A DNA stretch of 29,985 nucleotides from a virus (IMGVR_UViG_3300045988_014270:1-29985); one strand, 5' to 3'; positions 444 to 29,985 are shown, counted from the stretch's first letter. The notes: a model not told the origin generated them from the sequence alone. A program made the numbers and translations.

Positions 444-839
444 TCAATGTTGACGAATACTTTTGCGACAGTGTGAATACTTTTGCGACAGTGTGAATAC
501 TTTTGCGACAGTGTGATGCTGTTCAGTCTGATATTCCTGCTCAAAGGTTTCGTGCAGCAGAGTGGAAAACTCCGTAAAGCTTCCACACTCCAGCATCTGT
601 GCGGCCATCTGCTCCAGAGTCAGGTAGCGGTTCTCGTAGCAGAGCCAAGCGTATTCCTCCCATGTTTCGTTCCGAGCTTCCCGGACCAGCTTGGACAGTT
701 TGGAGACCGGGATGTACCCGTAGAGTTCGTGATGGTAGTTGAAGCCGCACCGTGTGGGCTCCTGAGTCCAGTGGTCTTTGGCAAGGTGCATGACGCGCTG
801 GATGCCGCCTCGGATGGTCTGGATGTGGGTCTCGTTCAT
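444..839 (-). CDS. Hypothetical early protein (131 aa); C-terminus encoded by a 3x20-bp tandem repeat
   Basis: ORF track. SD AAGGAGGA upstream of the ATG at 839. First gene downstream of promoter/operator 877..915. The last ~20 codons lie inside repeat 455..514. Confidence 0.75.
   Translation of the reverse strand: MNETHIQTIRGGIQRVMHLAKDHWTQEPTRCGFNYHHELYGYIPVSKLSKLVREARNETWEEYAWLCYENRYLTLEQMAAQMLECGSFTEFSTLLHETFEQEYQTEQHHTVAKVFTLSQKYSHCRKSIRQH
455..514. repeat. Perfect tandem repeat, 3 x 20 bp (GAATACTTTTGCGACAGTGT)
   Basis: Units at 455..474, 475..494 and 495..514 are identical. The unit length is not a multiple of 3. Confidence 0.95.
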
Positions 840-876: not shown

Positions 877-915
877 TGATATACCCATTATATCACTATT
901 GGGTTGTCGGGTCAA
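877..915 (-). promoter_or_regulatory. Promoter P1 with palindromic operator (TTGACC-N17-TATAAT; TGATATA-N5-TATATCA at 877..895)
   Basis: On the minus strand, -35 is at 915..910 and -10 at 892..887 with a TGA extended -10. A 7-5-7 inverted repeat overlaps the -10. Leader palindrome ATCAAGC-N6-GCTTGAT sits at 861..880. Confidence 0.7.
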
Positions 916-2950: not shown

Positions 2951-3007
2951 TGGCGGAAAAGTTCCCGTCTCTCGGGGAAGCGCTTACTTGTTTTTGCGTG
3001 CATATTT

Positions 3008-3036
3008 ATTATATATCACGACAACACCGCTTGCAA
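3008..3036 (-). promoter_or_regulatory. Promoter P3 (TTGCAA-N17-TATAAT) pointing antisense into gene 2471..2950
   Basis: Minus strand reads TTGCAAgcggtgttgtcgtgataTATAAT. TATATCA half-site at 3012..3018. The ATG at 3003 follows 4 nt after the -10. Confidence 0.5.
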
Positions 3037-3065: not shown

Positions 3066-3248
3066 ATGTACGCTAAAGACTACACCGCAACGACGGAACA
3101 GTACGCGGAACGCTGGCACCTCAACGTCCAAACAGTACGCAGATACTGCCGTGAGAAACGACTGCCATACGTCAAGGTAGGCAACCGCTATTACTTCAAC
3201 ACCAACATCACACCACTACCCGTAGGAGAAACAATCAACGATGAATGA
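3066..3248 (+). CDS. MerR/excisionase-type HTH DNA-binding protein (60 aa)
   Basis: YAERWHLNVQTVRRYCREKRLPYVKVGNRYYF matches the excisionase-family helix-turn-helix pattern. Confidence 0.75.
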   Translation: MYAKDYTATTEQYAERWHLNVQTVRRYCREKRLPYVKVGNRYYFNTNITPLPVGETINDE

Positions 3249-3696: not shown

Positions 3697-3930
3697 ATGG
3701 CAGTGAACGTCACCGAGAAAGACAAGACGCTCAACGAGATCATCGACTGGTGTGCCGACCTCGCCAACAAGCTCCGCAACGCACCGGAAGGCGACTTCTA
3801 CGCCAACGTTAACGTCAACAACGTGAAGGCAGACACATTGACATTGGTCATACGTCATTGCCGTCACCTGCTCGGCTACACCGGCAACATGCCCACGGAA
3901 GTATCGAATCAAAGCGAGGACACGAAATGA
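3697..3930 (+). CDS. Hypothetical protein (77 aa)
   Basis: ORF track. TAAATG junction with ssb. ATGA overlap with the next gene. Confidence 0.65.
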   Translation: MAVNVTEKDKTLNEIIDWCADLANKLRNAPEGDFYANVNVNNVKADTLTLVIRHCRHLLGYTGNMPTEVSNQSEDTK

Positions 3931-10933: not shown

Positions 10934-12793
10934 ATGAAGACTCGTAAGAGCTTCTTAAACAGCGGTGCCCTAGAAACTAATGGTCGTAACCTCACATTCC
11001 TCGCCAACAGCGGCAAAGTAATGAGTGACGGACTCACCGTAGACTTGAAGACACTGAAAGCGCCGTTAATCGACGGCACTCTGAAACTCGTGTCCGACCT
11101 CACCGAGTCCGACAAACTATCACTACCGTTGCTGATCGACCACACGCCCAGTATCGAATGCCAAGCAGGCGCAATCACCCGACTTTGGATGACCGACGCC
11201 GGACTAATGGCCGAAGCGAAACTCAGCGAGGTAGATCAAGGCGAACGTATCCGCCAGCTTGCCGCCGACGGATGCCTGACCAACAGTTTCAGCATCACCG
11301 TTGAATTCAACCAGCGTCCCGGCAAGGACGGTATCATCCATGATGGCGAACTACTGGAAATCAGCGTCGTATATCGTGGGGCCGACCCAAGGGCCGCTTT
11401 CACCGCAATCAACAGCCGCAACAACAACACGAATGGAGGCACCATGAACCAGGAACTCCTGAAGAAACTGGCGCGTACCATCGCCCAGTTCAAACTCACC
11501 CCGGACGAGGCGGAACAGCTCACCGCTTCCATCGGTGACATCATGCAGGGCGCTCTCGATGACATCACCAACGCCATCACCAACCAGAAGGAAGGCGAGG
11601 GCGAGGGCGAGGGCACCCCGGCACCGGAGGAACCCGTGCAGACTTCCAACAGCCGCCAGACCATCATCATCAACAAGGCCAACCACGCCGCCCACCAGTC
11701 GGGTACCGTGAAGTTCTCCCACGACCGTAAGACGTGGCTCGACTCCGATGACGCCATGATCGCGTTCGAGCGTGCCCTGATCGACACCGACAACAAGGGC
11801 GTCGAAGCGTTCCACCGTGAGTGGGCCGACACCGTGAACCGTAACATGTCGGACACCGCATCCTTCGACTCTAGCGCTGGCAATGTGAACGGCGTTGACG
11901 CTACCAACGTGAACAAGTTCATCCCGACCGAGGCCATCACCACGATCTCGGACGCGCTGAACACTCGCGGCTCCGGCCTGTGGAATCTGCTGCGCAAGAC
12001 CGGTCTTGACCGTCTGACCATCGGCGGCAATATCAACGGTCTGACTGATCAGACCCGTGCCCACGGCTACCCGGTGAGCGAGTACGGCACGGAGAAGACG
12101 AAACAGGTGCTTTCGTTCGTGAAGCGCGAGCTTCAGGCCGACTACACCTACAAGTACATCACCCTGAACAAGGGCGATATTCGCCGCACCCAGCGTCCGG
12201 GCGCTCTGCTCCGCTACGTGCTTCAGGAACTCCCGAACTATATTATCCAGACCATCGAACGCCAGATCACGCTCGGCGATTACACGGATATGGCGCACTT
12301 CCGTAGCGTTGTGACCGACGCGGAAGACAGTAAGTCCGAGTGGCGTGGCAACCGTTTCGCGCTCTCCTACACCATGACGAATGACGCCCCATTGATGGAC
12401 TTCGTTCGTGCCTCCCACATGGTTCGCGCTCAGGGAAACAAGGTGCTGCTCTGCAACGCTGATACTGTCGCTAATCTGCTGATGTCCGCGGACGCTAACG
12501 GAAATACGTATATCGCTCTCGGCGGTGACGATACTCTGGCCCGCGCTCTCAGTGTCCAGCAGATCATTACCCCGGAATGGTGGACTGAATCGGATGACAC
12601 CAATACTATGGGTATTATCATGTCCGCGTCCCACTACCCGGTGGTTGGCGATACGTCCATCGAGGCGTTCACTAACTTCGCGTTGTCCACGAACACCAAC
12701 GAGTATCTTCAGGAGATTTACGCTGGTGGCGGTTTGGACGCGGAGAAGTCAGCCGTGGTCATCAAGCCGAAGGCCAAGCGAGGTGCTGCCTGA
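10934..12793 (+). CDS. Prohead protease (S78/HK97 gp4-like) - scaffold linker - major capsid protein fusion (619 aa)
   Basis: N-terminus LLIDHTPS..., NSFSITVEF and LLEISVVYRGADPRA fit the HK97-type prohead protease. Coiled/EGEGEGEG linker. The ~370-aa C-terminal part is at the major capsid position. In-frame internal ATG 11444 has SD GGAGG. Confidence 0.75.
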   Translation: MKTRKSFLNSGALETNGRNLTFLANSGKVMSDGLTVDLKTLKAPLIDGTLKLVSDLTESDKLSLPLLIDHTPSIECQAGAITRLWMTDAGLMAEAKLSEVDQGERIRQLAADGCLTNSFSITVEFNQRPGKDGIIHDGELLEISVVYRGADPRAAFTAINSRNNNTNGGTMNQELLKKLARTIAQFKLTPDEAEQLTASIGDIMQGALDDITNAITNQKEGEGEGEGTPAPEEPVQTSNSRQTIIINKANHAAHQSGTVKFSHDRKTWLDSDDAMIAFERALIDTDNKGVEAFHREWADTVNRNMSDTASFDSSAGNVNGVDATNVNKFIPTEAITTISDALNTRGSGLWNLLRKTGLDRLTIGGNINGLTDQTRAHGYPVSEYGTEKTKQVLSFVKRELQADYTYKYITLNKGDIRRTQRPGALLRYVLQELPNYIIQTIERQITLGDYTDMAHFRSVVTDAEDSKSEWRGNRFALSYTMTNDAPLMDFVRASHMVRAQGNKVLLCNADTVANLLMSADANGNTYIALGGDDTLARALSVQQIITPEWWTESDDTNTMGIIMSASHYPVVGDTSIEAFTNFALSTNTNEYLQEIYAGGGLDAEKSAVVIKPKAKRGAA

Positions 12794-14434: not shown

Positions 14435-14863
14435 ATGATTGATCTGGCCATGTGCATGACCCTACAAAACGAGGGTTTCGGCACTTACGGCAAAACACTG
14501 TTCTTCGGAACTAGTCCAGTATTGGACACGGGCAGCGTCACGAACGCCGAAGGCATCTGGGTCAACGCTAACACCGTGGACATCAACGGCGACCTATACA
14601 CCGACCAGCTCACAGTCAGCAGCCGATACTTCGACGTCATCGAACAAGGAAAGTTGATGCTCCGACTCCTGCACTTCATCAACAATCATCTGCATGACTA
14701 TTGCCAACTGACCTGCAACCCCATCGCTGATATTGACTTTGTATCAATCCGCGTGCATCCGGCGACCGCCATCGACATGGACGCCATCGACGGTGAAGGC
14801 CGCTGGGTGAAAAGCATCCGATTCAACGTGGACTACAAGCTCTCCAACGAAACGGTAGAATAG
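14435..14863 (+). CDS. Putative tail terminator/tail completion protein (142 aa)
   Basis: SD AGGAG. Lies immediately upstream of the major tail protein. Call rests on position only. Confidence 0.5.
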   Translation: MIDLAMCMTLQNEGFGTYGKTLFFGTSPVLDTGSVTNAEGIWVNANTVDINGDLYTDQLTVSSRYFDVIEQGKLMLRLLHFINNHLHDYCQLTCNPIADIDFVSIRVHPATAIDMDAIDGEGRWVKSIRFNVDYKLSNETVE

Positions 14864-16529: not shown

Positions 16530-18757
16530 TGGCAGACTCGACACTGACCCTAGACGCCGAGATCAACACCGGCGATTGGAACGCTGGCGTCAAGGATATT
16601 GAATCGGGGAGCCGTCAAATCGAAACGTCGGCGCGGCAAGCTGATGGAGCGCTGGGTAACGTTGACAAGTCGGCTGGCAAATCTTCCAGCGGGTTCGGAA
16701 AGTTCGGTGTAGTCGCCGGTGCCGTTGGCGGTCTCGTATCCTCTGGTATCAGTATGGCGGTTGATGCGATTGGCGACCTTACCGGCGATATCGTGGAAGC
16801 ATCCGATTCGGCGAACAAGTTCAAAAGCACTCTGAACTTTGCCGGTCTGGATACCAGTACTATTGACGCGCTTACTGCAAGCACTCAGACATACGCCGAC
16901 CAGACCGTGTATTCCATCAGTGATATTCGCAACGTGACCGCCCAGCTTGCCGCGAACGGCGTACAGGGCTTCGACAAACTAGCTGAAGCCGCTGGTAATC
17001 TGAACGCTGTCGCCGGTGGTAACGCGGAAACTTTCAGCTCGGTCGGTATGGTGCTTACGCAGACCGCTGGCGCTGGCAAGCTCACCACGGAGAACTGGAA
17101 CCAGCTAGCCGACGCCATCCCCGGTGCTTCCGGAAAACTTCAGGAAGCCATGCTCAAGAACGGTGCTTATACCGGTAACTTCCGCAAAGCGATGGAAGAA
17201 GGCGAGATCAGCGCGGATGAATTCAATCAAGCCATAATGGACTTGGGTATGACGGACGCCGCTAAAGAGGCCGCGACCAGCACCAGCACCATTGAAGGTG
17301 CTATGGGCAACCTCGAAGCGTCCGTGGTCGGCGTGGGAACTACGATTCTTGACCAGTTTAAAGGCCCGCTGACATCCGGCATTAGTATTGTGGCTGAGAG
17401 AATCAGCGGGCTTAGTGGCGTGTTTATCGGACTGGTGCAGACCCTCGGCCCGATTGTCTCACAGATCGGCACAACGTTCCAGACCGCTTTTCAACCGGTT
17501 GTAGGAATCGTGCAATCTCAGTTGCTTCCGGCGTTCAAACCACTTATGAGCGCCCTACAGAATCTCGGCAATGCCATCATGCCTGTACTCCAGAGCATTG
17601 CACCAGTGTTGGGTACCGTAGCGAGCGACATCGTGCAAACTATGAGTAGTGTCGCAACTGCGGTAACGCCTGTGATTAATAACATCGCCTCGTCGATTAA
17701 GACGGTGCTCCCGGCGCTTCAACCGCTTATGGGTGCTTTGCAGAATCTCAACAATGCCGTTATGCCTGTCATCATGGCCGCGATTCAGAACATTGCACCC
17801 GTGTTGTCTACCATAGTGAACAACATCATGCAAACTATGAGCGTTGTCGCAACTGCGGTAACACCGGTGATTAATAACATCGCTACGTTGATTCAGGCCG
17901 TGCTACCCGCCATCCAATCAGCGTTCCAAATCTGGGGCACTTACATTCAGGGTGTTATTAACGCGGTTTTCCCCTACATCCAAACGGTTATCACGTCCGT
18001 CATGGATGTTATCAACGCGATAATCAACACAGTATTGGCCGCGATTAACGGCGACTGGTCTGGAGTGTGGGAGGGAATCAAGAATATCGTTTCCAGTGTT
18101 TGGAACGGTATCCAAAGTATCGTTTCCAGTGGCCTCAATGCAATGTCTGGAATCGTTTCAAGCGTCCTGAACGCCATCAGCGGTATTTTCGGCAATGTAT
18201 GGAACAGTATCAAGGGCGCGGTGAGCGCCGCGTGGAACGGCATCACAAGCGCTGTCAGCAGTGGCGTTAGTTCCATGATGAGCTTCATCACCAGTATTCC
18301 GAGCCGTATCATGGGCGTGTTCAGCGGAGCCGGATCATGGTTGCTGAGCGCTGGCCAGAACATTATTCAGGGTCTGGTTAACGGCATTAAGAACGCCATC
18401 GGCGGAGCCATTTCAGCGGTCAAGGATGCGGTCGGCAACGTTATCGACGCTGCCAAAAACATACTGGGCATCCACTCCCCGTCGAAGGTTTTCGACCGTG
18501 AGATTGGTCGGATGATTCCGGCTGGTCTTGGACGTGGCGTAACGGAGAACGAGCGTGCGGCCACTCGACCGGTGGAAGACATGGTGGACTCGCTTCTTCC
18601 ATCGTCCATTGTGACGCCCATGCCTGTCATGTCTAGCCCGGTGCCTGTGAATATGAACAGTGGCCCGCGTGTGAGCGCGCCTATCACGGTGAACGCTCTT
18701 GACCCGAACGCGGCTGCTCGGGAAACCGTGAGGGTGATTAATTTCCATTACGTGTGA
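16529..18757 (+). CDS. Tape measure protein
   Basis: 742 aa, Ala/Gly/Ser/Val-rich with internal repeats. Located downstream of the chaperones. Start is ATG 16529 (GTGATG; GTG 16526 is also possible). Confidence 0.85.
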   Translation: MADSTLTLDAEINTGDWNAGVKDIESGSRQIETSARQADGALGNVDKSAGKSSSGFGKFGVVAGAVGGLVSSGISMAVDAIGDLTGDIVEASDSANKFKSTLNFAGLDTSTIDALTASTQTYADQTVYSISDIRNVTAQLAANGVQGFDKLAEAAGNLNAVAGGNAETFSSVGMVLTQTAGAGKLTTENWNQLADAIPGASGKLQEAMLKNGAYTGNFRKAMEEGEISADEFNQAIMDLGMTDAAKEAATSTSTIEGAMGNLEASVVGVGTTILDQFKGPLTSGISIVAERISGLSGVFIGLVQTLGPIVSQIGTTFQTAFQPVVGIVQSQLLPAFKPLMSALQNLGNAIMPVLQSIAPVLGTVASDIVQTMSSVATAVTPVINNIASSIKTVLPALQPLMGALQNLNNAVMPVIMAAIQNIAPVLSTIVNNIMQTMSVVATAVTPVINNIATLIQAVLPAIQSAFQIWGTYIQGVINAVFPYIQTVITSVMDVINAIINTVLAAINGDWSGVWEGIKNIVSSVWNGIQSIVSSGLNAMSGIVSSVLNAISGIFGNVWNSIKGAVSAAWNGITSAVSSGVSSMMSFITSIPSRIMGVFSGAGSWLLSAGQNIIQGLVNGIKNAIGGAISAVKDAVGNVIDAAKNILGIHSPSKVFDREIGRMIPAGLGRGVTENERAATRPVEDMVDSLLPSSIVTPMPVMSSPVPVNMNSGPRVSAPITVNALDPNAAARETVRVINFHYV
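17525..17902 (+). repeat. Internal tandem duplication in the tape measure gene (~183 and ~195 bp units)
   Basis: LPAFKPLMSALQNLGNAIMPV...TAVTPVINNIASSIKTV is repeated as LPALQPLMGALQNLNNAVMPV...TAVTPVINNIATLIQAV. The DNA units start at 17525 and 17708. Confidence 0.8.
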
Positions 18758-20828: not shown

Positions 20829-21546
20829 ATTCAAGTTCAGTCTCGATAGCGCGGACGCGACCGCCCGCCAGTTTTCGGACATCAAACGCCAGTTGCAGGA
20901 ATTGCCGCCGAGCATCGTCAACAGCGTTAAGCCTATGGTCGATCAGATCACTCAAATGTTTGAGGAAGTGCAGACGTTGACGAACAATCTTGACCAGCGT
21001 GTGCAGGAAAGTATCACCCGCAACAGTTACACACGTTCCGAGATTGACGCTAAAACGCAGGAATGGAACTGGGGGGTATTGGCTCCGAATCGTGGTGGTA
21101 CTGGTACCGGCAACGCCTACAATAACTTGTTTACGTCCGGCCAATGGCGTGCCGCGTGGATATTGTCTAACGGCACTATGGGCACGGCGCAGTCGATTCG
21201 TGCGGTGAAGACCGATATCGTGGACGCCGACGATTACATTCCTGTTGATGCTCTCCGCAAGGTGAAGTGGTGCATCTATCGGATGAAGGATGACAAGAAC
21301 CTGAACCTTGATGACGCTCAACCAAGGGTAGGCATGATTGCCGACGATATGGACGAAAACGGTCTGGGTTTCTTCTGCGAATACAATGATGACGGTACTC
21401 TAACGGGTATCAATTATCCGATGTTGGGAGTGGCGGCGCTCAGGTTGGCTCAAATGGTGGCGGATGACTTGGACGCGCTCAAGGCCAAGGTTGAGACGCT
21501 ATCCAACGGCAAAGATAAAATGAGTGTAGACGATTCGGAGGAATGA
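20818..21546 (+). CDS. Tail fiber/spike protein with C-terminal intramolecular chaperone (Peptidase_S74-like) domain
   Basis: SD CAGGAGG upstream of ATG 20818. The C-terminus SIRAVKTDIVDADDYIPVDALRKVKWCIYRMKDD...PRVGMIADDMDENG...INYPMLGVAALRLAQMV...LKAKVETL fits the S74 auto-cleaving chaperone pattern. Confidence 0.7.
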   Translation: MPSKFKFSLDSADATARQFSDIKRQLQELPPSIVNSVKPMVDQITQMFEEVQTLTNNLDQRVQESITRNSYTRSEIDAKTQEWNWGVLAPNRGGTGTGNAYNNLFTSGQWRAAWILSNGTMGTAQSIRAVKTDIVDADDYIPVDALRKVKWCIYRMKDDKNLNLDDAQPRVGMIADDMDENGLGFFCEYNDDGTLTGINYPMLGVAALRLAQMVADDLDALKAKVETLSNGKDKMSVDDSEE

Positions 21547-21548
21547 TT

Positions 21549-22556
21549 ATGGCTATCATCATGCACCCGCTTACCGCGAAGAACGGTTCCCCACAGTATA
21601 CGGCGGATGATTACAGGCACGCCATCAATCCTCTGTTAGTCCCGTCTGATGGTACCGCGTTCAATGGTTTGTCTGGAATCCGCTACGGTTCCCCGAGTCC
21701 TCTGGTCACGGTGAGTGGTCTGACTGTTACGGTCAAGCCTCATTGCGGTACCATCAGCCCGTGGGATGGTTTGGGCGCGTACACTTACGCCATCACCACC
21801 AATACGACCGTGCAGTTGGCTAACTCAACCAACAATTACAAGATCGCGGTTACGGTGGAAGACCCGTCACAGTCGCACGGTACGACTCCGCGCGGCAAGA
21901 TCGAGGTGTTCACGGCTGGTACGCCTGACTCGAATATCAACGGTCTTGTTATTGCCAAGGTGAACGCCGGTGTCGCGTCGGATGTGGCCCCGATGATTCG
22001 TAATAACGCGGTTCTGATGGCGCGTGATCTTGCCCAGCTCAACACCATTGACGCGGTGGATGGGCAGGAGGCTGTGACTATTGCCGATAATGCCCATTAT
22101 GCCATGAACAATGGCGAATGGGGGTTGGACGTTCCACGCTACGTGAAAACGAGTTTTCGCAGGACTGACAACAGTCTCAACCTGAACAATAATGCGAGCA
22201 CGCTCATGAATCAGACGATTGTCGGCAACACTCTCGGAGCGACTATACGCCAGACCGGGAGCGGGCAGGCAATCACGTTGAAACGAGGACTGTATCTACT
22301 CATCGCACGCATCCAGATTCAGACTGCCTCGGCAAACCAATGGATGAATATTGGTCTTAACACTTCAGGCGTCAACGTGATAGGCCCCAATAGTGCGGAA
22401 GGCTCAACAAGTGGCTCGTCGGGTTATTCTGGTGTTCAGCTGACTTCTGCCCTTCTCGTGAACTCCAGCGACGCATATGTTTCCGTTAACGTAACGGTGT
22501 CCGGTAATTCGTCCATGCGAACTCCGGGAGAAATGTTAATCGTGGAACTGCGATAA
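21549..22556 (+). CDS. Putative receptor-binding/tail fiber protein (335 aa)
   Basis: Last structural gene. GGAGGA lies 6 nt before ATG 21549; ATG 21543 abuts the SD directly. No family recognised. Confidence 0.55.
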   Translation: MAIIMHPLTAKNGSPQYTADDYRHAINPLLVPSDGTAFNGLSGIRYGSPSPLVTVSGLTVTVKPHCGTISPWDGLGAYTYAITTNTTVQLANSTNNYKIAVTVEDPSQSHGTTPRGKIEVFTAGTPDSNINGLVIAKVNAGVASDVAPMIRNNAVLMARDLAQLNTIDAVDGQEAVTIADNAHYAMNNGEWGLDVPRYVKTSFRRTDNSLNLNNNASTLMNQTIVGNTLGATIRQTGSGQAITLKRGLYLLIARIQIQTASANQWMNIGLNTSGVNVIGPNSAEGSTSGSSGYSGVQLTSALLVNSSDAYVSVNVTVSGNSSMRTPGEMLIVELR

Positions 22557-23020: not shown

Positions 23021-23152
23021 ATGAGACGTTTCAAACGGTGCGTGATTCTTGTATTCTCGCTCGCCGCCGTCTCGTTGATAGTCCACGTCCTGATAACGAC
23101 CTACGCCGTTTTATGCATGGCGTGGCTGTTCTTCTACGCAATCAGTCTATAG
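23021..23152 (+). CDS. Small hydrophobic ORF (43 aa), possible holin/antiholin-like
   Basis: Hand-translated: [43 protein letters not shown]. No clear SD. Its stop lies 12 nt before the endolysin ATG. Confidence 0.3.
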
Positions 23153-23163
23153 GAGGAGTTGTA

Positions 23164-24315
23164 ATGGCTTTGAACGGTATCGACATCAGCAATTGGCAGG
23201 CTGGTATCGACCTGTCTGTTGTACCGTGTGATTTCGTCATCAGCAAAGCGACGGAGGGATGCTGGTACGTGTCAGCGGATTGCGCTCGGCAAGTGGAACA
23301 GGCGTTGAGTCTGGGAAAGTGTGTGGGCGTATACCATTACGCCAACGGCGGTGACGCTGTTTCCGAGGCTGACTATTTCGTGAACAATTGCGCGAATTGG
23401 GTCGGCAAGGTTGTATGGTGCTTGGACTGGGAGCAACAGGGTAACGGACTATTCGGGTCTGGCGCGCCTGCGCAACAGTGGATTAGATCGTTCTGTGATC
23501 GCGTGTACGAGCGTACAGGCTCCCAGCCTATCGTCTACACGGGCGCGTCCATGCTTAACGACGTGCAGAACATTGGAGACCGTGGCTTATGGGTAGCCCA
23601 GTATGCGAATATGGATGTTACGGGGTATCAGGATACGCCGTGGAACGAGGGCGCGTATGCGTGCGCTATCCGCCAGTATTCGGGTAATGGTCGTTTGCCC
23701 GGATATTCAGGTAGTCTTGACCTTGACAAGTTCTATGGTGATGTGAATGCTTGGAATGCGTATAAGGCTGGTCATTCGACTGTGACCAACGTGCCGACGC
23801 CTGCCGCTCCTGCCCCGTCTACTCCAGCGTCTGACACGTATATCGTGCGTTCCGGTGACACGTTGAGTGGTATCGCGTCGATGTATGGGACTAGCTGGCA
23901 GGTGTTGGCGCAGATCAATAATCTGTCTGACCCTAATATGATTTATCCGGGTCAGGTGCTGAAGATCAATGGCACTGCCAATACGGTTCAGCCCGGTAGC
24001 GGCACGTATACGGTTCAATCCGGTGACACGTTGAGTGGTATCGCCGCCCAGTACGGGGCTTCGTGGCAGACTCTCCAGCAGCTTAACGGTATTGCCGACC
24101 CGAATCTGATTTATCCGGGTCAAGTGTTGAAAGTGCCGGGCGGCGCACCGGCACCGGCACCGGCCCCGTCCGTCACAACGTACACTATCCAGCCCGGTGA
24201 CACGTTGAGTGGTATCGCCGCCCAGTACGGTACCAGTGTTTCCAGTCTGGTGGCGTTGAATGGTATCGCCAATCCTGATGTGATCTACGCGGGACAGACG
24301 ATTCGCGTCAAGTAG
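23164..24315 (+). CDS. Endolysin: GH25 muramidase + three LysM domains
   Basis: [18 protein letters not shown]...ISKATEG...VGVYHY is a GH25 signature. Three GDTLSGIA...YPGQ LysM repeats are separated by Pro/Ala linkers. Confidence 0.9.
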
Positions 24316-24613: not shown

Positions 24614-24663
24614 TACACTGGTGTTGCTCCTTTCGAGCGATGGTGTGATGACCAATTGAATTA

Positions 24664-24711
24664 GCCCGGCACTGGTCTTGATGACTGGTGTCGGGCTATT
24701 CTTTCTTTTTT
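24664..24711 (+). terminator. Intrinsic terminator at the convergence point of the two arms
   Basis: 14-bp stem GCCCGGCACTGGTC / GACTGGTGTCGGGC (3 G.U pairs in the plus-strand RNA) with loop TTGAT, followed by TATTCTTTCTTTTTT. The HNH stop codon (24710..24712) sits in the T-tract. Confidence 0.8.
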
Positions 24712-25051
24712 AGTTGTTCAAGAGGAAGTCTCGATTTCGGTATTCGCTGAAGACCGGGACGTCTTCCGGGTGGTCGTTGTAGGCGCTGACCAACCATCCC
24801 ATTGCGTATGATTCCTTTGGATGAGCGTGGATACGCCCGTGGCATCCCATTGTTCCCGACCCGCAGACGGTAATCAGGTTGCTGGGTAGGTTCAACCCGT
24901 CCCAAGCGTGGGAGCGCATACGCCTGTGATGCAGGTTGAAAGCGGAGGCGCTTAACGTTTTCCCGCAGATGAAGCATCTGCCGTGGTCTCGGTGGAACAC
25001 CTTCATGCGGGTTTCAGTATCCGGGTCTGTTTTGCTCACTTGGATACTCAT
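24710..25051 (-). CDS. HNH endonuclease
   Basis: CFICGK...NLHHRRMRSH...NLITVCGSGTMGCHGRIH is an HNH/zinc-binding pattern. ATGA coupling with the upstream gene. Confidence 0.85.
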   Translation of the reverse strand: MSIQVSKTDPDTETRMKVFHRDHGRCFICGKTLSASAFNLHHRRMRSHAWDGLNLPSNLITVCGSGTMGCHGRIHAHPKESYAMGWLVSAYNDHPEDVPVFSEYRNRDFLLNN

Positions 25052-25323
25052 TCGCAGTGGAAGAAGTACAAGGTTATCGGTGCGGTTAGTTTGAAGAAAT
25101 ATTGCCTATCGGTGTCTGTCTTGCATTCTCGGATGGCCGTGAGCTTGACGCCATCGACGCTGCTTAGGATGTCGTAGAGTTTGAGGAACGATACGGCGTC
25201 TTTAATGCCGATTTGTCCGAACGTGAGTTCCTGTCCTAGTCCTTGGTTGTCGATGATTTCCTGTGCTTGCGGGGCCTTCTGCAAGAGGTTGATGATCGAG
25301 GTCAGATAGTTGATGGTGTTCAT
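25048..25323 (-). CDS. Hypothetical protein (91 aa)
   Basis: SD AAAGGAG upstream of the ATG at 25323. No motif recognised. Confidence 0.65.
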   Translation of the reverse strand: MNTINYLTSIINLLQKAPQAQEIIDNQGLGQELTFGQIGIKDAVSFLKLYDILSSVDGVKLTAIRECKTDTDRQYFFKLTAPITLYFFHCE

Positions 25324-25370: not shown

Positions 25371-25700
25371 CTAGTCTTTCGCCAGAATGTCATAGCCGAG
25401 TTGTTCGGCCAGTCGCAACCGGTATTGTTTTTGTGGTTTGCGGCGTCCGTTTTCCCACATGGCTATCACGTTTGGGCCTGCGACGCCGATTCGTTCGGCT
25501 AGTTCCGCCTGTGAGTATCCGTGGCGTATCCTCCAGTATTTGATGCACTGGCCGATGGTCACGCTGTCGCTGATGGTCGCGTAGTCAATGGGAATGTTGC
25601 CGACGTTCTGTCGTGTGAAGAACTGGCCGGTCTGACTGTCCTGTTCCACGGTGACTTCTTGACCGTTGATTACGGTTTTGATCTTGTTTTGCTTATGCAT
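25371..25700 (-). CDS. XRE-family HTH regulator (HTH in the C-terminal half), 109 aa
   Basis: IRHGYSQAELAERIGVAGPNVIAMWENGRRKP is HTH_3-like. SD GGGAGGTG. Lies directly downstream of the longest operator palindrome. Confidence 0.8.
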   Translation of the reverse strand: MHKQNKIKTVINGQEVTVEQDSQTGQFFTRQNVGNIPIDYATISDSVTIGQCIKYWRIRHGYSQAELAERIGVAGPNVIAMWENGRRKPQKQYRLRLAEQLGYDILAKD

Positions 25701-25713
25701 GTTTCACCTCCCT

Positions 25714-25757
25714 ACAATGTGATATATATATTATATCACATTGTTTGTGTTTCGCAA
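25714..25757 (-). promoter_or_regulatory. Promoter P4 with perfect 13-5-13 palindromic operator
   Basis: ACAATGTGATATA-TATAT-TATATCACATTGT at 25714..25744. On the minus strand TTGCGA-N16-TATAAT (-35 at 25757..25752, -10 at 25735..25730). Overlaps the stop of gene 25736..26014. Confidence 0.75.
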
Positions 25758-26014
25758 AACAGTTCACTAATGGCTTCGCGCCCGTCGTCGGTCAGAGCGA
25801 ACCGCCAGCAATGACGGTGCCGACTGTTCACACCATCCCGATCGACACGGCACACATGACCGGAACGCTCAAGCTCGATCATGCGCGACCTCAAGCCCTG
25901 CGGAGTGTCGTCATATTTCGCCAAGACCGCCATGCGTTCGATTTCCTCGTGGGTAAGCGGTCGTTTCGCCATCCAAAGGATCAACAGCACATGAACCTGT
26001 TGCAGGCCGAACAT
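25736..26014 (-). CDS. Winged-helix DNA-binding protein (92 aa)
   Basis: VLLILWMAKRPLTHEEIERMAV...LRSRMIELERSGHVCRV is a wHTH (MarR/ArsR/PadR-like) pattern. TAATG coupling with the upstream gene. Confidence 0.65.
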   Translation of the reverse strand: MFGLQQVHVLLILWMAKRPLTHEEIERMAVLAKYDDTPQGLRSRMIELERSGHVCRVDRDGVNSRHRHCWRFALTDDGREAISELFCETQTM

Positions 26015-26379
26015 TACGCCACCGTCGTTTCAGCGGAGTGGCGTAGGAACGCGGCAATACTCGCCGCCACAATCCACCCGGCCACCCATTTGACTCCGAA
26101 ACGTACCCGGTTGATCTTGGCGGCCATCGCCCACACGGGGAGCGACGCCCAAGGGCTAAGACACCAACCGCAATAGGCGAGCTCACCGAGACTATCCGCG
26201 TAATTTTTGGCCCATGTGGGGAGCGAGCTGGGAAGGTTTTCGGTTTTTACGGTTAGCTTGCGGCGGAGCGAGGAAAACACGTAGCCGGGGCCGGGCGAGA
26301 GCTGTACGACGGTGGTCGCGTATCCGGCTGTGATTCCGGCGGAAAGCACGGCAGTCCACCAATTGCCATTAGTTTTCAT
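26014..26379 (-). CDS. Membrane protein (121 aa)
   Basis: SD AGGAAAGGAAAA upstream of the ATG at 26379. About 3 hydrophobic segments. CGWCLSPW motif is reminiscent of DUF1360-type proteins (from memory, unverified). The longer track ORF to 26613 overlaps a better upstream gene. Confidence 0.6.
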   Translation of the reverse strand: MKTNGNWWTAVLSAGITAGYATTVVQLSPGPGYVFSSLRRKLTVKTENLPSSLPTWAKNYADSLGELAYCGWCLSPWASLPVWAMAAKINRVRFGVKWVAGWIVAASIAAFLRHSAETTVA

Positions 26380-26707
26380 CGGTTTTCCTTTCCTCGTGGC
26401 GACGCCAGCAGTGATACCGCTTGTTGTAGTCCGCGTACAGGTCTTCGTATAGTTGTTTCGCCTCGTTGGTGGCTTCGTTGTAATCGTACCCGTGCTGTTG
26501 CAGGGCGTATCGAGCGGCACCGACCCAGATGGAGCGGCGCACGTGTTGATACCAACGGTCGAACAGTTTGCCGCACGCTTTGTCGTGCTTATCGTCTCCG
26601 AGGAAGTCGGCAACGCTTTCCATTACGAATTTTCTCAGACTGTTCGCGGTGATATGGTTACTGTCGAACAGTTCCAGCACATCGCTGGTTAAAGTGTTAT
26701 TCTTCAT
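26369..26707 (-). CDS. Hypothetical protein (112 aa)
   Basis: Strong SD GAGGAGGAA upstream of the ATG at 26707. Protein-like composition. Confidence 0.7.
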   Translation of the reverse strand: MKNNTLTSDVLELFDSNHITANSLRKFVMESVADFLGDDKHDKACGKLFDRWYQHVRRSIWVGAARYALQQHGYDYNEATNEAKQLYEDLYADYNKRYHCWRRHEERKTDEN

Positions 26708-27020
26708 TGGGTTCCTCCTCTTCTTCGGGTTCGTCTTCGTCTGCTAGGTAATCGTCAAGGCTGATGTCCTGCGGCTCGAAGTAAAACAATCCATCCAGCA
26801 AGATCATCGGATAGCGCACGGGTACCCCTTGGTCTTTGGCGATGGCGCGTATACCTCTGGCGGTGGGGCTTCCCGACAGCACGACACGGAGCCTACGACC
26901 CATCTGCTGTGCGTACACGTGGCACGTGCTCAGATAAGCGGCGTCCTTCCGGTTGCACGTGGGGCATCCGTCGAACAGGACGAACATGTCCGGGCTTTCC
27001 AAGATCGTTGCGGTTTTCAT
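26697..27020 (-). CDS. Glutaredoxin/NrdH-like thioredoxin-fold protein with acidic tail (107 aa)
   Basis: FVLFDGCPTC (CxxC after a beta strand) and VPVRYPMILLDG (cis-Pro-like motif). C-terminal EDEPEEEEEPNEE. TGATG coupling. Confidence 0.5.
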   Translation of the reverse strand: MKTATILESPDMFVLFDGCPTCNRKDAAYLSTCHVYAQQMGRRLRVVLSGSPTARGIRAIAKDQGVPVRYPMILLDGLFYFEPQDISLDDYLADEDEPEEEEEPNEE

Positions 27021-27928
27021 CAGAACGTCACCTCCAGAGCGTCGGCCAGCACGTCGGAGATATGGAGCGTGGCCAACTGGCCACGCTTATGCTCTTCGAT
27101 CTGTTTGGTGATGTCCTTGCGGTACACGGGAATGACCTGATGGTGTGCAGGTCCGACCACGCGCGGGTCGAACATCGAGAAATACAGGACTTCCAGCGAA
27201 TCGCACACCACGAAGTATTGGAGTACCTGCGCTTTGTACTGGTCGGGAATGAAATCGAAGCCGGTCGCTTTGGAGTCCAGAGTGTATCCGGGCAACACTT
27301 GTTCGATGGCCTCGACCAGTTCAGGTTTGAGGTTGGCGATATGAGACCTCATGGCGTCCGTGTGCATCATCCACGGTACTACCGTCTGCAAATGGTAGTC
27401 GGAGCCGAGCGACTTGCATTCGATGGCCCACGTCGGCTTCTCAGTGTTCTCGTAAGCGTCTGGACTGCAAGCGATACGGTCGTCGTCGTCACTCTCCCAG
27501 ATACCGCAGTCGGTGACGCAATCACTGGGGTTGAAGCCAAGCGTTTTGAGTGTGGTCTGGATGTTCTCGGGTTCGAGACGGTGGCCGCGTTCCATCGGAG
27601 GTTCGCCGTCCGCTGGTTCGGCCCACAGTTCCGCTAGGAACTTCCAGAAGTCAACGCCGACTTTCAGCCGCTTGTTCTTTGCTTCGGCTTCGATAATCTT
27701 GATGTCATACCCCTGAGCTTTGATGTAATACTCGCTAGACTTGTCGTACGTATTCGCTTTCTTCGCCTGTTCCAACGCCTTGTCTCGGTACTCTTTGAGT
27801 TTTTCCACGTCGGTCTGAGCGTAGTGTTCCAAGGCAAGTCCGCCGCTCTTGGTGCCTGTGATACGACCCACTCGTTCGTCGAGCCATGCTTCCGTTTCGG
27901 TGGCTTGCGATACATTGATGATCTTCAT
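27020..27928 (-). CDS. YqaJ/lambda-exonuclease-like recombination exonuclease (PD-(D/E)XK)
   Basis: EAWLDERVGRITGTKSGG N-terminal motif. ACSPDAY...WAIECKS gives the D...ExK motif. SD AAAGGA upstream of the ATG at 27928. Confidence 0.75.
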   Translation of the reverse strand: MKIINVSQATETEAWLDERVGRITGTKSGGLALEHYAQTDVEKLKEYRDKALEQAKKANTYDKSSEYYIKAQGYDIKIIEAEAKNKRLKVGVDFWKFLAELWAEPADGEPPMERGHRLEPENIQTTLKTLGFNPSDCVTDCGIWESDDDDRIACSPDAYENTEKPTWAIECKSLGSDYHLQTVVPWMMHTDAMRSHIANLKPELVEAIEQVLPGYTLDSKATGFDFIPDQYKAQVLQYFVVCDSLEVLYFSMFDPRVVGPAHHQVIPVYRKDITKQIEEHKRGQLATLHISDVLADALEVTF

Positions 27929-27951
27929 TGATGTTGTCCTTTCGGTTGGGT

Positions 27952-27977
27952 GTGGGCGGGTGACGAGTCCCGCCCAC
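27952..27977 (-). promoter_or_regulatory. Perfect 9-bp GC-rich intercistronic hairpin
   Basis: GTGGGCGGG-N8-CCCGCCCAC between genes 27987..28328 and 27020..27928. There is no U-tract on the minus strand. Confidence 0.5.
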
Positions 27978-27986
27978 AAGTATGTG

Positions 27987-28328
27987 TCATGCGAAGCGGG
28001 GAGCGTACTGCTTGATGATGGTGTTCATTTCGTTGAACAAATCACGCGCTGTGTTCTTGAACAGTGATTCATCGCAATCTACGGTGTCCAGCTTCTCGCT
28101 GTATTCCACGCATCCATCCGTATATATTGGTTCATCTTCCCAGAGCACGGAGAATAGGAAGCAGTGTTCTTCGGGTTGTACCGACACACTGCACTTGAGC
28201 TTGGTGCCAGCAAACTCGATGATTGCTGTGTCATTCGGTACGTATTCGGACGCCCAGTTGATTTCCGTTATCTCGCTGTATTCGCTGAGATAATCGTTGA
28301 TAACGGTGAAGATGTTGGCGTTTTTCAT
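27987..28328 (-). CDS. Hypothetical acidic early protein (113 aa from ATG 28328)
   Basis: SD GAAGGAG 5 nt before ATG 28328; the track start 28346 lacks an SD. About 21 D/E versus 8 K/R by my count. Confidence 0.7.
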   Translation of the reverse strand: MKNANIFTVINDYLSEYSEITEINWASEYVPNDTAIIEFAGTKLKCSVSVQPEEHCFLFSVLWEDEPIYTDGCVEYSEKLDTVDCDESLFKNTARDLFNEMNTIIKQYAPRFA

Positions 28329-28363
28329 TTCGACTCCTTCGGTCATATATCAAGCACCATGCC

Positions 28364-28402
28364 TGATATATATAATATATCACAATGTGGTGGGTTGAGC
28401 AA
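28364..28402 (-). promoter_or_regulatory. Promoter P5 with palindromic operator (TTGCTC-N17-TATATT)
   Basis: TGATATA-TATAA-TATATCA at 28364..28382. -35 at 28402..28397 and -10 at 28379..28374. An extra TATATCA half-site sits at 28346..28352. Confidence 0.7.
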
Positions 28403-28422: not shown

Positions 28423-28680
28423 TCACACACTCCCATTACTGGACTCTATGGCGTCAATCATGTTGATGACGCTGAGCATAACCACAATGGCCCCAATAAG
28501 CACCATGACCAGGGCTGGAAACACGATATTCCACGAACACCCCTGAGCCACGGAACAGACCACGCATCCTCCGAACCCGGCCCCTGACGTGAACAGCCCT
28601 ATCGCCGTGAACATCATGTATCGAATAGCGTTGATTACGCCGAAAGGCCTGTTCTTGCTGTTGTTCTTCTGTTGATTCAT
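28423..28680 (-). CDS. Small membrane protein (85 aa, 2 TM)
   Basis: ATGA coupling. SD TGGAGAA. Two hydrophobic helices. Confidence 0.65.
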   Translation of the reverse strand: MNQQKNNSKNRPFGVINAIRYMMFTAIGLFTSGAGFGGCVVCSVAQGCSWNIVFPALVMVLIGAIVVMLSVINMIDAIESSNGSV

Positions 28681-29171
28681 TTCAGATTCTCCAATTCCTT
28701 TTCGATCTCTTCGCCCATCTTCTCCGACATGGGTCGCGGGTCATCGATATACGCCTTGACGCACTTGCGCATGTGGTCGATGAGTATATGGGCAAAGTTG
28801 ACGTAATCCATGTTCGGAACGCATATGTTCAGATCACCTAGTTCGGTTCCGAATTGGAATATACCCACGATTCTATCGTCGTCATCCCTGTGCAATGGAG
28901 TAGGTTCCATGCTCATGACCAGTGCGCTGCAACCCGGCACTACCATGTCAGTTTGCCCTGATTCAGGGTAGAACTTGTGGATGTACTTGATGATGACCAG
29001 CTGGTCTTTAGCTACTGATTCCGGGATACTGTCCAGCACTTCGCTTGTGACACTGGTCTTGTTTCCGTCAAATGTGTAGTGGTTGATGAACAGCGGTTTG
29101 GCGTTCTCGGTGTCCTTGATGGTGTCGAGGACGATCTGCTGGTTGTCTGCCGCGTACAGTGTGATGTACAT
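28677..29171 (-). CDS. Hypothetical protein (164 aa; alternative start 29189)
   Basis: AAAGGAA upstream of ATG 29171. ATG 29189 lies 2 nt after the erf stop. The longer track ORF to 29282 overlaps erf. Confidence 0.65.
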   Translation of the reverse strand: MYITLYAADNQQIVLDTIKDTENAKPLFINHYTFDGNKTSVTSEVLDSIPESVAKDQLVIIKYIHKFYPESGQTDMVVPGCSALVMSMEPTPLHRDDDDRIVGIFQFGTELGDLNICVPNMDYVNFAHILIDHMRKCVKAYIDDPRPMSEKMGEEIEKELENLK

Positions 29172-29191
29172 TGGTTGTGTTCCTTTCATGT

Positions 29192-29815
29192 TCAGTTGGC
29201 TGAGTTCATCGGATTCTGTAAATCGGTTTCCGTGAGTCCGTCCATCAGATTCCGGAAATCGGTTTGCGTGAGTTCCTTCCATCCCCTGACCTGACGGTTC
29301 AGGGTGCTGTTGATGTACTCGCCGCGCGACTCGGACGGGATATTATGCGCGTTCATCGCCTGGACCAGATCGGCGTACTGGTTGACGCTGATGGTACGAT
29401 CCGCGGTCTCGTATCGTTGTTTGGCATACGCGCCGTCATCGTCCTTGTCCGGGAAGATGCCCAACACCGCGTAGAGACTGTAGCGGCGTGCGTAGGTGAT
29501 CGCGCTACCGACCTGCTGGGGATCGCCGGTCACGAAGAACGGGTAGGAGCAGGCCACCATCTGTTCTGCATCGTCGAAGATGATGGTCTCCACCGTTCCA
29601 ATGACCTGCCTTGCTTCTCCCGTGTTGTCGAACGTGACGCGCTGGCTGAATGCCAGACCGTGCTTCTCGAAAACCGGTTTGATGGTCTTGAGTATCGTGG
29701 CGAGGTTGAGGTACTTGTAAGTCCGGGTGCCTGCCTGCGCGGTTTCGTCGGTCACGAAGTTGGGGACTTCGTTGAGTACCCGCATGAACTTGTTGCTGAG
29801 GTTGTTGGTTGCCAT
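29192..29815 (-). CDS. erf: ERF-family single-strand annealing protein
   Basis: YKYLNLATILKTIKPVFEKHGL... and QQVGSAITYARRYSLYAVLGIFPDKDDDG match ERF signatures. SD AAAGGAA 7 nt before ATG 29815. Confidence 0.85.
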   Translation of the reverse strand: MATNNLSNKFMRVLNEVPNFVTDETAQAGTRTYKYLNLATILKTIKPVFEKHGLAFSQRVTFDNTGEARQVIGTVETIIFDDAEQMVACSYPFFVTGDPQQVGSAITYARRYSLYAVLGIFPDKDDDGAYAKQRYETADRTISVNQYADLVQAMNAHNIPSESRGEYINSTLNRQVRGWKELTQTDFRNLMDGLTETDLQNPMNSAN

Positions 29816-29841
29816 CACAAGGTTCCTTTCTGATAGTGCGA

Positions 29842-29880
29842 TGATATATAAAGTATATCACATGTTGTGGGGTTGGACAA
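29842..29880 (-). promoter_or_regulatory. Promoter P6 with palindromic operator (TTGTCC-N17-TATACT)
   Basis: TGATATA-TAAAG-TATATCA at 29842..29860. -35 at 29880..29875 and -10 at 29857..29852. Confidence 0.7.
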
Positions 29881-29930: not shown

Positions 29931-29985
29931 CACTAGGACATGCATTAAGTCAGATCGGCCATGCCTCGCCGTTCGTCAAATACAC
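29931..29985. repeat. Terminal direct repeat copy B (identical to 1..55)
   Basis: See copy A. Confidence 0.95.

Follow-up and report, generated by a model that had tools for sequence, protein, structure and literature searches.

The lambda Cro/CI system at PL and PR combines a small HTH_3 protein made from an early operon with palindromic operators that lie over several early promoter cores, the regulator's own included, and its outcome is a turn-down of early transcription. In lambda, the operators form tripartite OR and OL arrays, and the regulators work alongside a divergent repressor gene and an integrase. In the Streptomyces phage phiC31, one repressor (c) acts through the same inverted repeat at many early promoters; phiC31 is an actinobacterial, temperate phage with an integrase and an immunity function, and its early promoters are not of the -35/-10 type. 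C proteins of restriction-modification systems, such as C.AhdI, are small XRE-fold proteins whose dimers bind palindromes at their own promoters and provide feedback, serving one restriction-modification operon through paired C-boxes, first as activator and then as repressor. Cluster A mycobacteriophages carry stoperators: each is an asymmetric site to which a monomer binds, and many are situated within transcribed regions (PMC9283540). Stoperators lie mostly in such transcribed regions and block elongation (PMC9283540, PMC6550527).

The DNA analysed here, a viral stretch of 29,985 nucleotides that we call the window, resembles lambda in encoding a small HTH_3 protein in an early operon and in carrying palindromic operators over several early promoter cores, including that of the candidate regulator, with early turn-down as the expected result. 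It differs from the lambda arrays in having single 19-bp sites at four separate promoters (up to six in relatives), and it has no divergent repressor gene, integrase or prophage copies. Moreover, the HTH is C-terminal here, behind a small beta unit, and the left half-site coincides with an extended -10 element. The likeness to phiC31, by arrangement alone, lies in a multi-operon early regulon with a shared inverted repeat. With Cluster A phages, the arrangement shares a putative single repressor, many copies of a short site and an actinobacteriophage genome; unlike stoperators, however, the sites here are symmetric, are four in number and occupy promoter cores only. The XRE-family protein of the window resembles C.AhdI in its small XRE fold, but no restriction gene is present.

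Positions 1-55 of the window recur exactly at 29931-29985, so the assembly is circular or terminally redundant, with a unit of 29,930 bp. Since the ends join, the 6.3-kb minus-strand early arm is unbroken across them and runs from 1073 to 1 and then from 29930 to 24710. In order, it encodes two unknown proteins, an Erf annealing protein (29192-29818), a YqaJ-like exonuclease (27020-27979), several small unknown proteins, a 92-aa protein, the XRE-family protein (hereafter XRE), a 91-aa protein and an HNH endonuclease (24710-25051). Between the convergent arms, a GC-rich hairpin of 16 pairs followed by a T-run (24662..24698) is likely to be the terminator that closes the early arm. The plus strand carries a replication module (1134-2950), a small HTH_17 gene (3066-3248) followed by genes for SSB, a DNA methyltransferase and RusA, and genes for the large terminase, portal, head protease/capsid protein, tail, a GH25-LysM endolysin (23038-24315) and a probable holin. 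Four copies of AAGCAAAGCGAGGACACGAAA (at 3907, 4595, 4610 and 4907; 81-100% identical) lie near the ends of plus-strand genes and encode a QSEDTK-like peptide; the copies may indicate the borders at which gene modules recombine. In the replication module, the replication-initiator-like gene at 1629-2477 (HTH_36, with PHROG matches to O-like and DnaD-like proteins) contains two tandem 45-nt copies, 98% identical, at 1958-2047, which are candidate origin iterons as in lambda gene O.

No integrase was recognisable among the eight ORFs of at least 300 aa in the window. Seven of the eight fall into a structural, lysis or recombination family, either directly or via the homologue in a relative (the route by which the tape measure and the endolysin were assigned); ORF 21543-22556, located among the tail genes, had no PHROGs match. 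Searching one representative genome from each of 185,579 species returned no XRE relatives. Together, the lack of an integrase and of XRE relatives in these species means that nothing suggests a prophage form, and the features of temperate immunity (an integrase or maintenance function, prophage copies) are not seen; this small gut phage is probably lytic. Two related contigs, of 142 kb and 56 kb, were considered as integrated prophages and rejected, as they are not integrated copies. On the 142-kb contig, which holds two of the recovered loci (L026 and L140), homology to the window ends just after the HNH gene; in L026, two IS200/IS605 TnpB-like ORFs (11379-12620 and 16814-18031) and unrelated phage-like genes come next, and the contig is chimeric or composite, not an integrated prophage.

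The closest isolates are the Bifidobacterium asteroides phages BlindUri1 and BlindBasel1 (MT006234 and MT006235; the bee phages below), with a large terminase 50.7% identical to that of the window, and the best cellular relative of the endolysin is from Alloscardovia (Bifidobacteriaceae; 47%). This kinship and the endolysin match suggest that the host is probably a member of the Bifidobacteriaceae. No near-identical phages were found: nothing useful emerged when the early arm was compared with 50,697 phage records by megablast, and tblastn with XRE gave none. Our literature searches did not find the phage family or the motif described.

The first-pass annotation of the window had reported four copies of TGATATA-N5-TATATCA, a 13-5-13 palindrome upstream of the XRE gene and six minus-strand -35/-10 hexamer pairs; all of these are present at the coordinates given for them, and the four copies are exact. 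Operator A (877..895, minus strand) sits on promoter P_A (887..915; TTGACC, 17-nt spacer, TG-A-TATAAT), which heads ORFs 444-839 and 20-397. Operator B (25720..25738, minus strand) is the 7-5-7 part of the 13-5-13 palindrome at 25714-25744 and overlaps the -10 and the predicted +1 of the XRE promoter, P_xre (25730..25757, minus strand; TTGCGA, 16 nt, TG-A-TATAAT; 10 of 12 matches, with the TG present). The -35 and spacer of P_xre fall within the 3' end of the gene for the 92-aa protein, and the first three bases of operator B, TGA, are the stop codon of that gene. P_xre heads the last early operon, with XRE first, followed by 25048-25323 and the HNH gene. Operator C (28364..28382, minus strand) belongs to P_C (28374..28402; TTGCTC, 17 nt, TG-A-TATATT), which heads 27987-28346, the YqaJ gene, 26697-27020, 26369-26707, a membrane protein ORF and, as the last gene, that of the 92-aa protein. 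Operator D (29842..29860, minus strand) belongs to P_D (29852..29880; TTGTCC, 17 nt, TG-A-TATACT), which heads the Erf gene, 28677-29282 and 28423-28680. Each full site therefore heads its own minus-strand gene block, as had been proposed, and the promoters are one-directional and of the extended -10 type. As a separate observation, GAATACTTTTGCGACAGTGTGA occurs in three exact copies, in tandem and with a period of 20 nt, at the 3' end of ORF 444-839 (minus strand; 455-516); since this period is not a multiple of three, it suggests a DNA-level element (iteron-like or a packaging signal) and not a coding repeat.

The exact palindrome pattern has no match in 100 dinucleotide-preserving shuffles, and allowing 2 mismatches adds a single site to the window, an intragenic one at 14728. 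TGATATAnT occurs five times, on the minus strand only, against 0.37 expected. A plain -35/-10 scan is not enriched over shuffles (5 found with 5.1 expected, and 6 found with 2.9 expected), so that the significance rests on the extended motif and the palindrome. All four copies sit on a minus-strand TTGnnn-N14-TGATATAnT sequence with a -35 spacer of 16-17 bp, and thus have the features of extended -10 promoters for the housekeeping sigma factor (TGn, TAnnnT, and TTGnnn at 17 +/- 1 bp); TGTG precedes the -10 at these promoters, and all four sites lie 25-45 nt upstream of a start codon with its GGAGG-like ribosome-binding site. With a transcription start 7 nt past the -10, the palindrome would cover about -15 to +4. 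Its left arm, TGATATA, combines the TGn with bases one to four of the -10 hexamer. The mirror image of this arm, the right arm TATATCA, would span about -3 to +4 and is dispensable for the promoter. On the plus strand, the hexamers at the palindromes read TATACC or TATATA and lack the final T. The sites thus have the form of symmetric operators over promoter cores, that of the XRE gene included.

The remaining two hexamer pairs are different, and the proposed six-member promoter family is better described as four like promoters and two deviating ones. P1105 (1077..1105, minus strand; GTGCAA, 17 nt, TG-A-TATAAT), which precedes a small ORF at 912-1073, has a poor -35 and no operator, the position of the right arm being occupied by TTGCATA. 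P3036 (3000..3036, minus strand; TTGCAA, 17 nt, TATAAT) lacks the TG, and its degenerate 19-mer (3018..3000, TGATATATAATAAATATGC) has 3 mismatches in the right arm, i.e., it is a decayed operator. In the window, P3036 faces the 3' end of convergent plus-strand genes. The plus-strand module 1134-2950 (encoding the HTH-like p127, Rep282 and p193) is absent from all 72 of the related loci described below; in relatives such as L143, the early strand has another HTH_36 replication gene immediately after a P3036-type promoter, which in L143 is the same promoter as that of the window. The window P3036 could make an antisense RNA or be a relic. The TTGCAA at 3031-3036 is self-complementary and can serve as the -35 both of P3036 and of a promoter on the plus strand (TTGCAA-17-TATATT) with a -10 that ends 6 nt ahead of the HTH_17 ATG (3066); the HTH_17 transcript from it could be leaderless. 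The first-pass annotation had also placed the whole early arm under one dimeric regulator. Here, the early arm is only partly under the operator, because P1105 has none and that of P3036 is decayed, and the plus-strand early genes (replication, SSB) carry none; what favours a common regulator for the remaining promoters is the all-or-none right arm in more than 70 genomes and a mirrored change of the arms in a distant lineage.

The relatives are 72 IMG/VR loci recovered with the XRE protein (86-94% identity), on contigs of mostly ~30 kb and 1.19 Mb in total. They contain 224 copies of the exact palindrome, one to six per locus, all of them upstream of the XRE gene and confined to the early arm, with none in the structural half. 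Paired half-sites are separated by 5 nt in 224 of 228 cases, and ~80% of half-site occurrences are within full palindromes. The family logo comprises TTG (99/86/80%), a 17-bp spacer, TGTG and TATAnT with its final T at 99%. The right arm was also assessed at promoters defined independently of the palindrome, solely as TTG-N16-18-TGnTAnnnT: it is present with at most one mismatch in 239 of 287 (83%), and the distribution is bimodal, with either 0-1 or 4-7 mismatches. Most of the promoters that have no right arm belong to one class, located ahead of a tRNA-like sequence not present in the window. Many relatives (among L001-L141) have this tRNA-like sequence in the early arm (consensus TTGGAGGCCGATCAAAATGTGCTATTCTAATGACCGTTGCCATTCCGCCCCTAGCTCACCGGATAGAG), behind an extended -10 promoter, TGTGCTATTCT, that carries no operator; the window has no tRNA gene.

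In a second motif-independent test, regions were positioned by the start codon of the XRE or the Erf gene. Of all segments compared, the right arm ranks first in majority fraction in the XRE set (0.957) as well as in the Erf set (0.958). For XRE, this is well above the downstream leader (0.83), while for Erf the next 15 nt of the leader are nearly equal (0.954), making the difference slight. The site orthologous to operator B is found in 70 of the 72 relatives, with a nearly invariant right arm; in two relatives, the XRE gene lacks a promoter of its own and comes after that of the 92-aa protein in the operon upstream, which bears an operator. Arms of 10 bp occur at the most distal promoter in many relatives. 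The number of target promoters per genome is four in the window and reaches six among the relatives.

Beyond this family, a profile search of 1.8 billion representative proteins yielded a few full-length XRE homologues with the same architecture. One of these, P0174, led to a sister family of ~30-kb contigs (L330-L353), in which identity to the window is 41-49% for XRE, 45-53% for the 92-aa protein and ~70% for Erf. These loci carry TGATAT-N7-ATATCA at 2-4 promoters each. The site before the YqaJ gene, when read directly in L344, is a forward promoter; on the basis of this reading, the orientation flag is unreliable in the sister family, and its apparent reverse sites were not trusted. Throughout the sister family, the XRE gene stands directly behind that of the 92-aa protein and has no promoter of its own. 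Because XRE is read from an upstream operator-bearing operon both here and in the two relatives mentioned above, feedback would be kept. Two other distant XRE homologues, P0163 and P0171, had no IMG/VR loci.

The two bee phages share with the window the genome plan, the Erf, YqaJ and HNH genes, and palindromes on extended -10 promoters of the minus arm, but their half-site is TGTTA/TAACA and not TGATA/TATCA; in their records, nearly all genes are hypothetical and regulatory sites are unannotated. In BlindUri1, TGTTA-N9-TAACA occurs 3 times (0.01 expected), solely at minus-arm promoters of the form TTGACA/TTGCAA, N13-14, TGTTAnnnT, and TAACA lies at the same distance as the right arm of the window; none of the three sites is directly before the XRE-like gene. 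Relative to the window, the palindrome has T in place of A at position 3 and A in place of T at position 17. The promoter leaves position 3 free, since it corresponds to the n of TGn, and the paired change, which represents one evolutionary event, is what recognition by a symmetric dimer would predict. Searches for intermediate lineages recovered only the window's own family (YqaJ alignment) or chance single matches (the bee-type promoter pattern in IMG/VR). Since the promoter-dispensable right arm is kept in an all-or-none way and the arms have changed in a mirrored way, we read the sites as promoter-operator modules for a symmetric dimer.

Both proteins proposed in the first-pass annotation as binders of these sites have DNA-binding folds. 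XRE (25371..25700, minus strand; 109 aa) matches HTH_3 above the Pfam cut-off (E 1.3e-10), and its model (pLDDT 70.5) has an N-terminal four-stranded beta unit (residues 7-38) and a C-terminal Cro/C1-type HTH (about residues 49-101); this domain matches SinR, P22 c2, HigA, C.AhdI and lambda repressor in structure. XRE is thus a phage-encoded protein of the Cro/C1 HTH type. The second candidate, the 92-aa protein (25736..26014, minus strand), matches no Pfam family even at E <= 1, the PadR model included, but its structural model (pLDDT 78.9) is that of a PadR/MarR-like winged-helix protein, with three helices, a two-stranded wing and a C-terminal helix (76-86); TM scores to RosR, PadR, MepR and MecI are 0.6-0.73, and one relative is named 'putative PadR-family' in nr. 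A third HTH-like protein, p127 (1134-1517), was rejected as regulator: it is absent from all 72 operator-keeping relatives and has no family match.

XRE is present in 72 of the 72 loci and the winged-helix protein in 71, and both occur in the sister family as well; being adjacent and co-conserved, they cannot be separated by presence and absence in the human-gut families. Covariation was equally uninformative, as the operator is constant when compared with XRE residues 71-80 and the winged-helix recognition region, and the two proteins were not separated. In the bee phages, the HNH gene adjoins a gene for an XRE-like protein (137-147 aa) whose HTH is C-terminal and follows an N-terminal extension; the recognition helix of this protein reads TAQAIRYW, versus GPNVIAMW in XRE of the window. 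In BlindUri1, the gene lies at MT006234 8200-8613. Because a homologue holds the same place in all three lineages, we lean towards XRE as the predicted binder. Two points count against it. The recognition helix varies at its start (residues 75-76: SP, GP, GH, SQ and GY) while the operator is constant. In addition, 14 bp separate the centres of the conserved outer 5-bp segments of the two arms, and this spacing is rather wide for a Cro/CI-type dimer.

The main alternative is that the winged-helix protein binds the same promoter-operator modules as a dimer, alone or with XRE. Palindromes of 16-20 bp are typical targets of PadR/MarR-like dimers, the winged helix with its C-terminal helix is as in small PadR proteins, the gene belongs to the core of both families, and its stop codon lies inside operator B. 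On the other hand, besides having no Pfam match, the protein has no homologue detectable by sequence in BlindUri1 and BlindBasel1, which do have the analogous palindromic promoters, and its gene is truncated in one relative, L042, though on a rearranged contig. The case for XRE leans on this one distant lineage, and a short, fast-evolving winged-helix protein could escape sequence detection. We regard a winged-helix binder as unlikely but as deserving serious attention.

Overall, we consider it reasonably probable that the XRE/Cro-like protein of the phage binds the four operators and serves negative feedback and early shut-off, and not prophage immunity. Host RNA polymerase would start the separate early operons from the four near-consensus extended -10 promoters. 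As XRE (or the winged-helix protein) accumulates, it would bind the 19-bp sites over -15 to +4 as a dimer, and the bound dimer would block RNA polymerase at all four promoters together. The regulator would in this way turn down its own operon and the other three, a Cro-like feedback in a phage that lacks lysogeny functions. Affinity may be graded, as the extended arms of the XRE promoter, and of the most distal promoter in many relatives, suggest. What we observed is the motif with its statistics, geometry and conservation, together with the modelled folds of the candidate proteins; the start position, the binding, its sign (repression versus activation) and the identity of the binder are inferred.

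It is also conceivable that a host transcription factor occupies the sites, or that the bound protein activates instead of represses, given that the sequence does not name the binder and that phages do borrow host regulators. We think this quite improbable: the stretch from -15 to +4 is a classic position for repression, the half-site differs between lineages that each have their own diverged XRE, and the motif is restricted to the early arm.

Somewhat less probable still is a palindrome that is intrinsic to the promoter and has no dedicated regulator, either as a symmetric, bidirectional -10 or as a start-site sequence that tunes initiation. The left arm is exactly the extended -10, the region of melting and start is covered by an AT-rich right arm, and the promoters at 1105 and 3036 carry the left arm alone, all of which would fit. 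However, among the unique sites of the family, the combination of a TTG -35 and a -7 T is one-stranded, being found on the early-gene strand in 282 of 294 cases and on the opposite strand in 0 of 291. The spacer bases vary freely apart from the T that closes the -10, and the mirror position of this -7 T is not conserved, so the element does not behave as a bidirectional -10. Seven exact bases, kept all-or-none, also exceed what a start-site preference needs, and the unconstrained position 3 changes together with position 17 in the bee phages.

Finally, it is highly improbable that the element works as an RNA hairpin in read-through transcripts (as a processing site, stabiliser or attenuator), and it is plausible for site B alone, which folds at -20.5 kcal/mol (z = -6.5). 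The right arm at sites A and C does pair with a downstream GCTTGAT(A/C)TAT, giving a hairpin where the transcript is predicted to begin. The palindromes of sites C and D, however, do not surpass shuffled sequence in folding (z of -1.4 and -0.4, with a D stem of about -5 kcal/mol), promoter-initiated RNA would lack the left arm because the predicted start is inside the palindrome, no T-run follows on the minus strand, and the window has no Rfam match.

The leaders behind sites A and C (845-880 and 28335-28370, minus strand) contain a second inverted repeat, ATCAAGC...GCTTGAT or ATATATCA...TGATATAT, which is also present in the same promoter classes of L001-L072. The prediction for this repeat is a hairpin with which the mRNA would begin, and it may be a stabiliser or other feature of the mRNA, or else serve as a third half-site; the right arm of the XRE and Erf promoters is not accounted for by it.

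Returning to the promoter-operator modules, we raise the speculative idea, to which we give rather little credence, that the extended -10 itself is the half-site of the regulator, so that the operator amounts to the promoter element plus its mirror image and the n of TGn sets lineage specificity. If true, seven bases added downstream could suffice to place any strong TGnTATA promoter under control, and the choice of base by lineage (T in the bee phages, A in the human-gut families) would amount to an immunity or exclusion code that is compact and evolvable. Such a code might support a carrier or pseudolysogenic state in Bifidobacteriaceae for phages that have no integrase.

The arrangement is most simply viewed as a classic repressor-operator circuit with one neat feature, namely that the left half-site is the extended -10 itself. 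As this is conceptually ordinary, the value of the finding is practical and not one of surprise. The phage belongs to a large, unstudied metagenome family of ~30-kb genomes, some of them from the human gut, whose nearest cultured relatives infect Bifidobacterium; besides the 72 loci of the window's own family in IMG/VR, some of the protein clusters have more than 1,000 member sequences. This family gains a concrete candidate circuit, consisting of a 19-bp site, four to six promoters per genome and two candidate proteins of ~100 residues, and TGTTA/TAACA provides a natural specificity variant. Compact, strong promoters that would be repressible in this way may serve as genetic tools in Bifidobacteriaceae.
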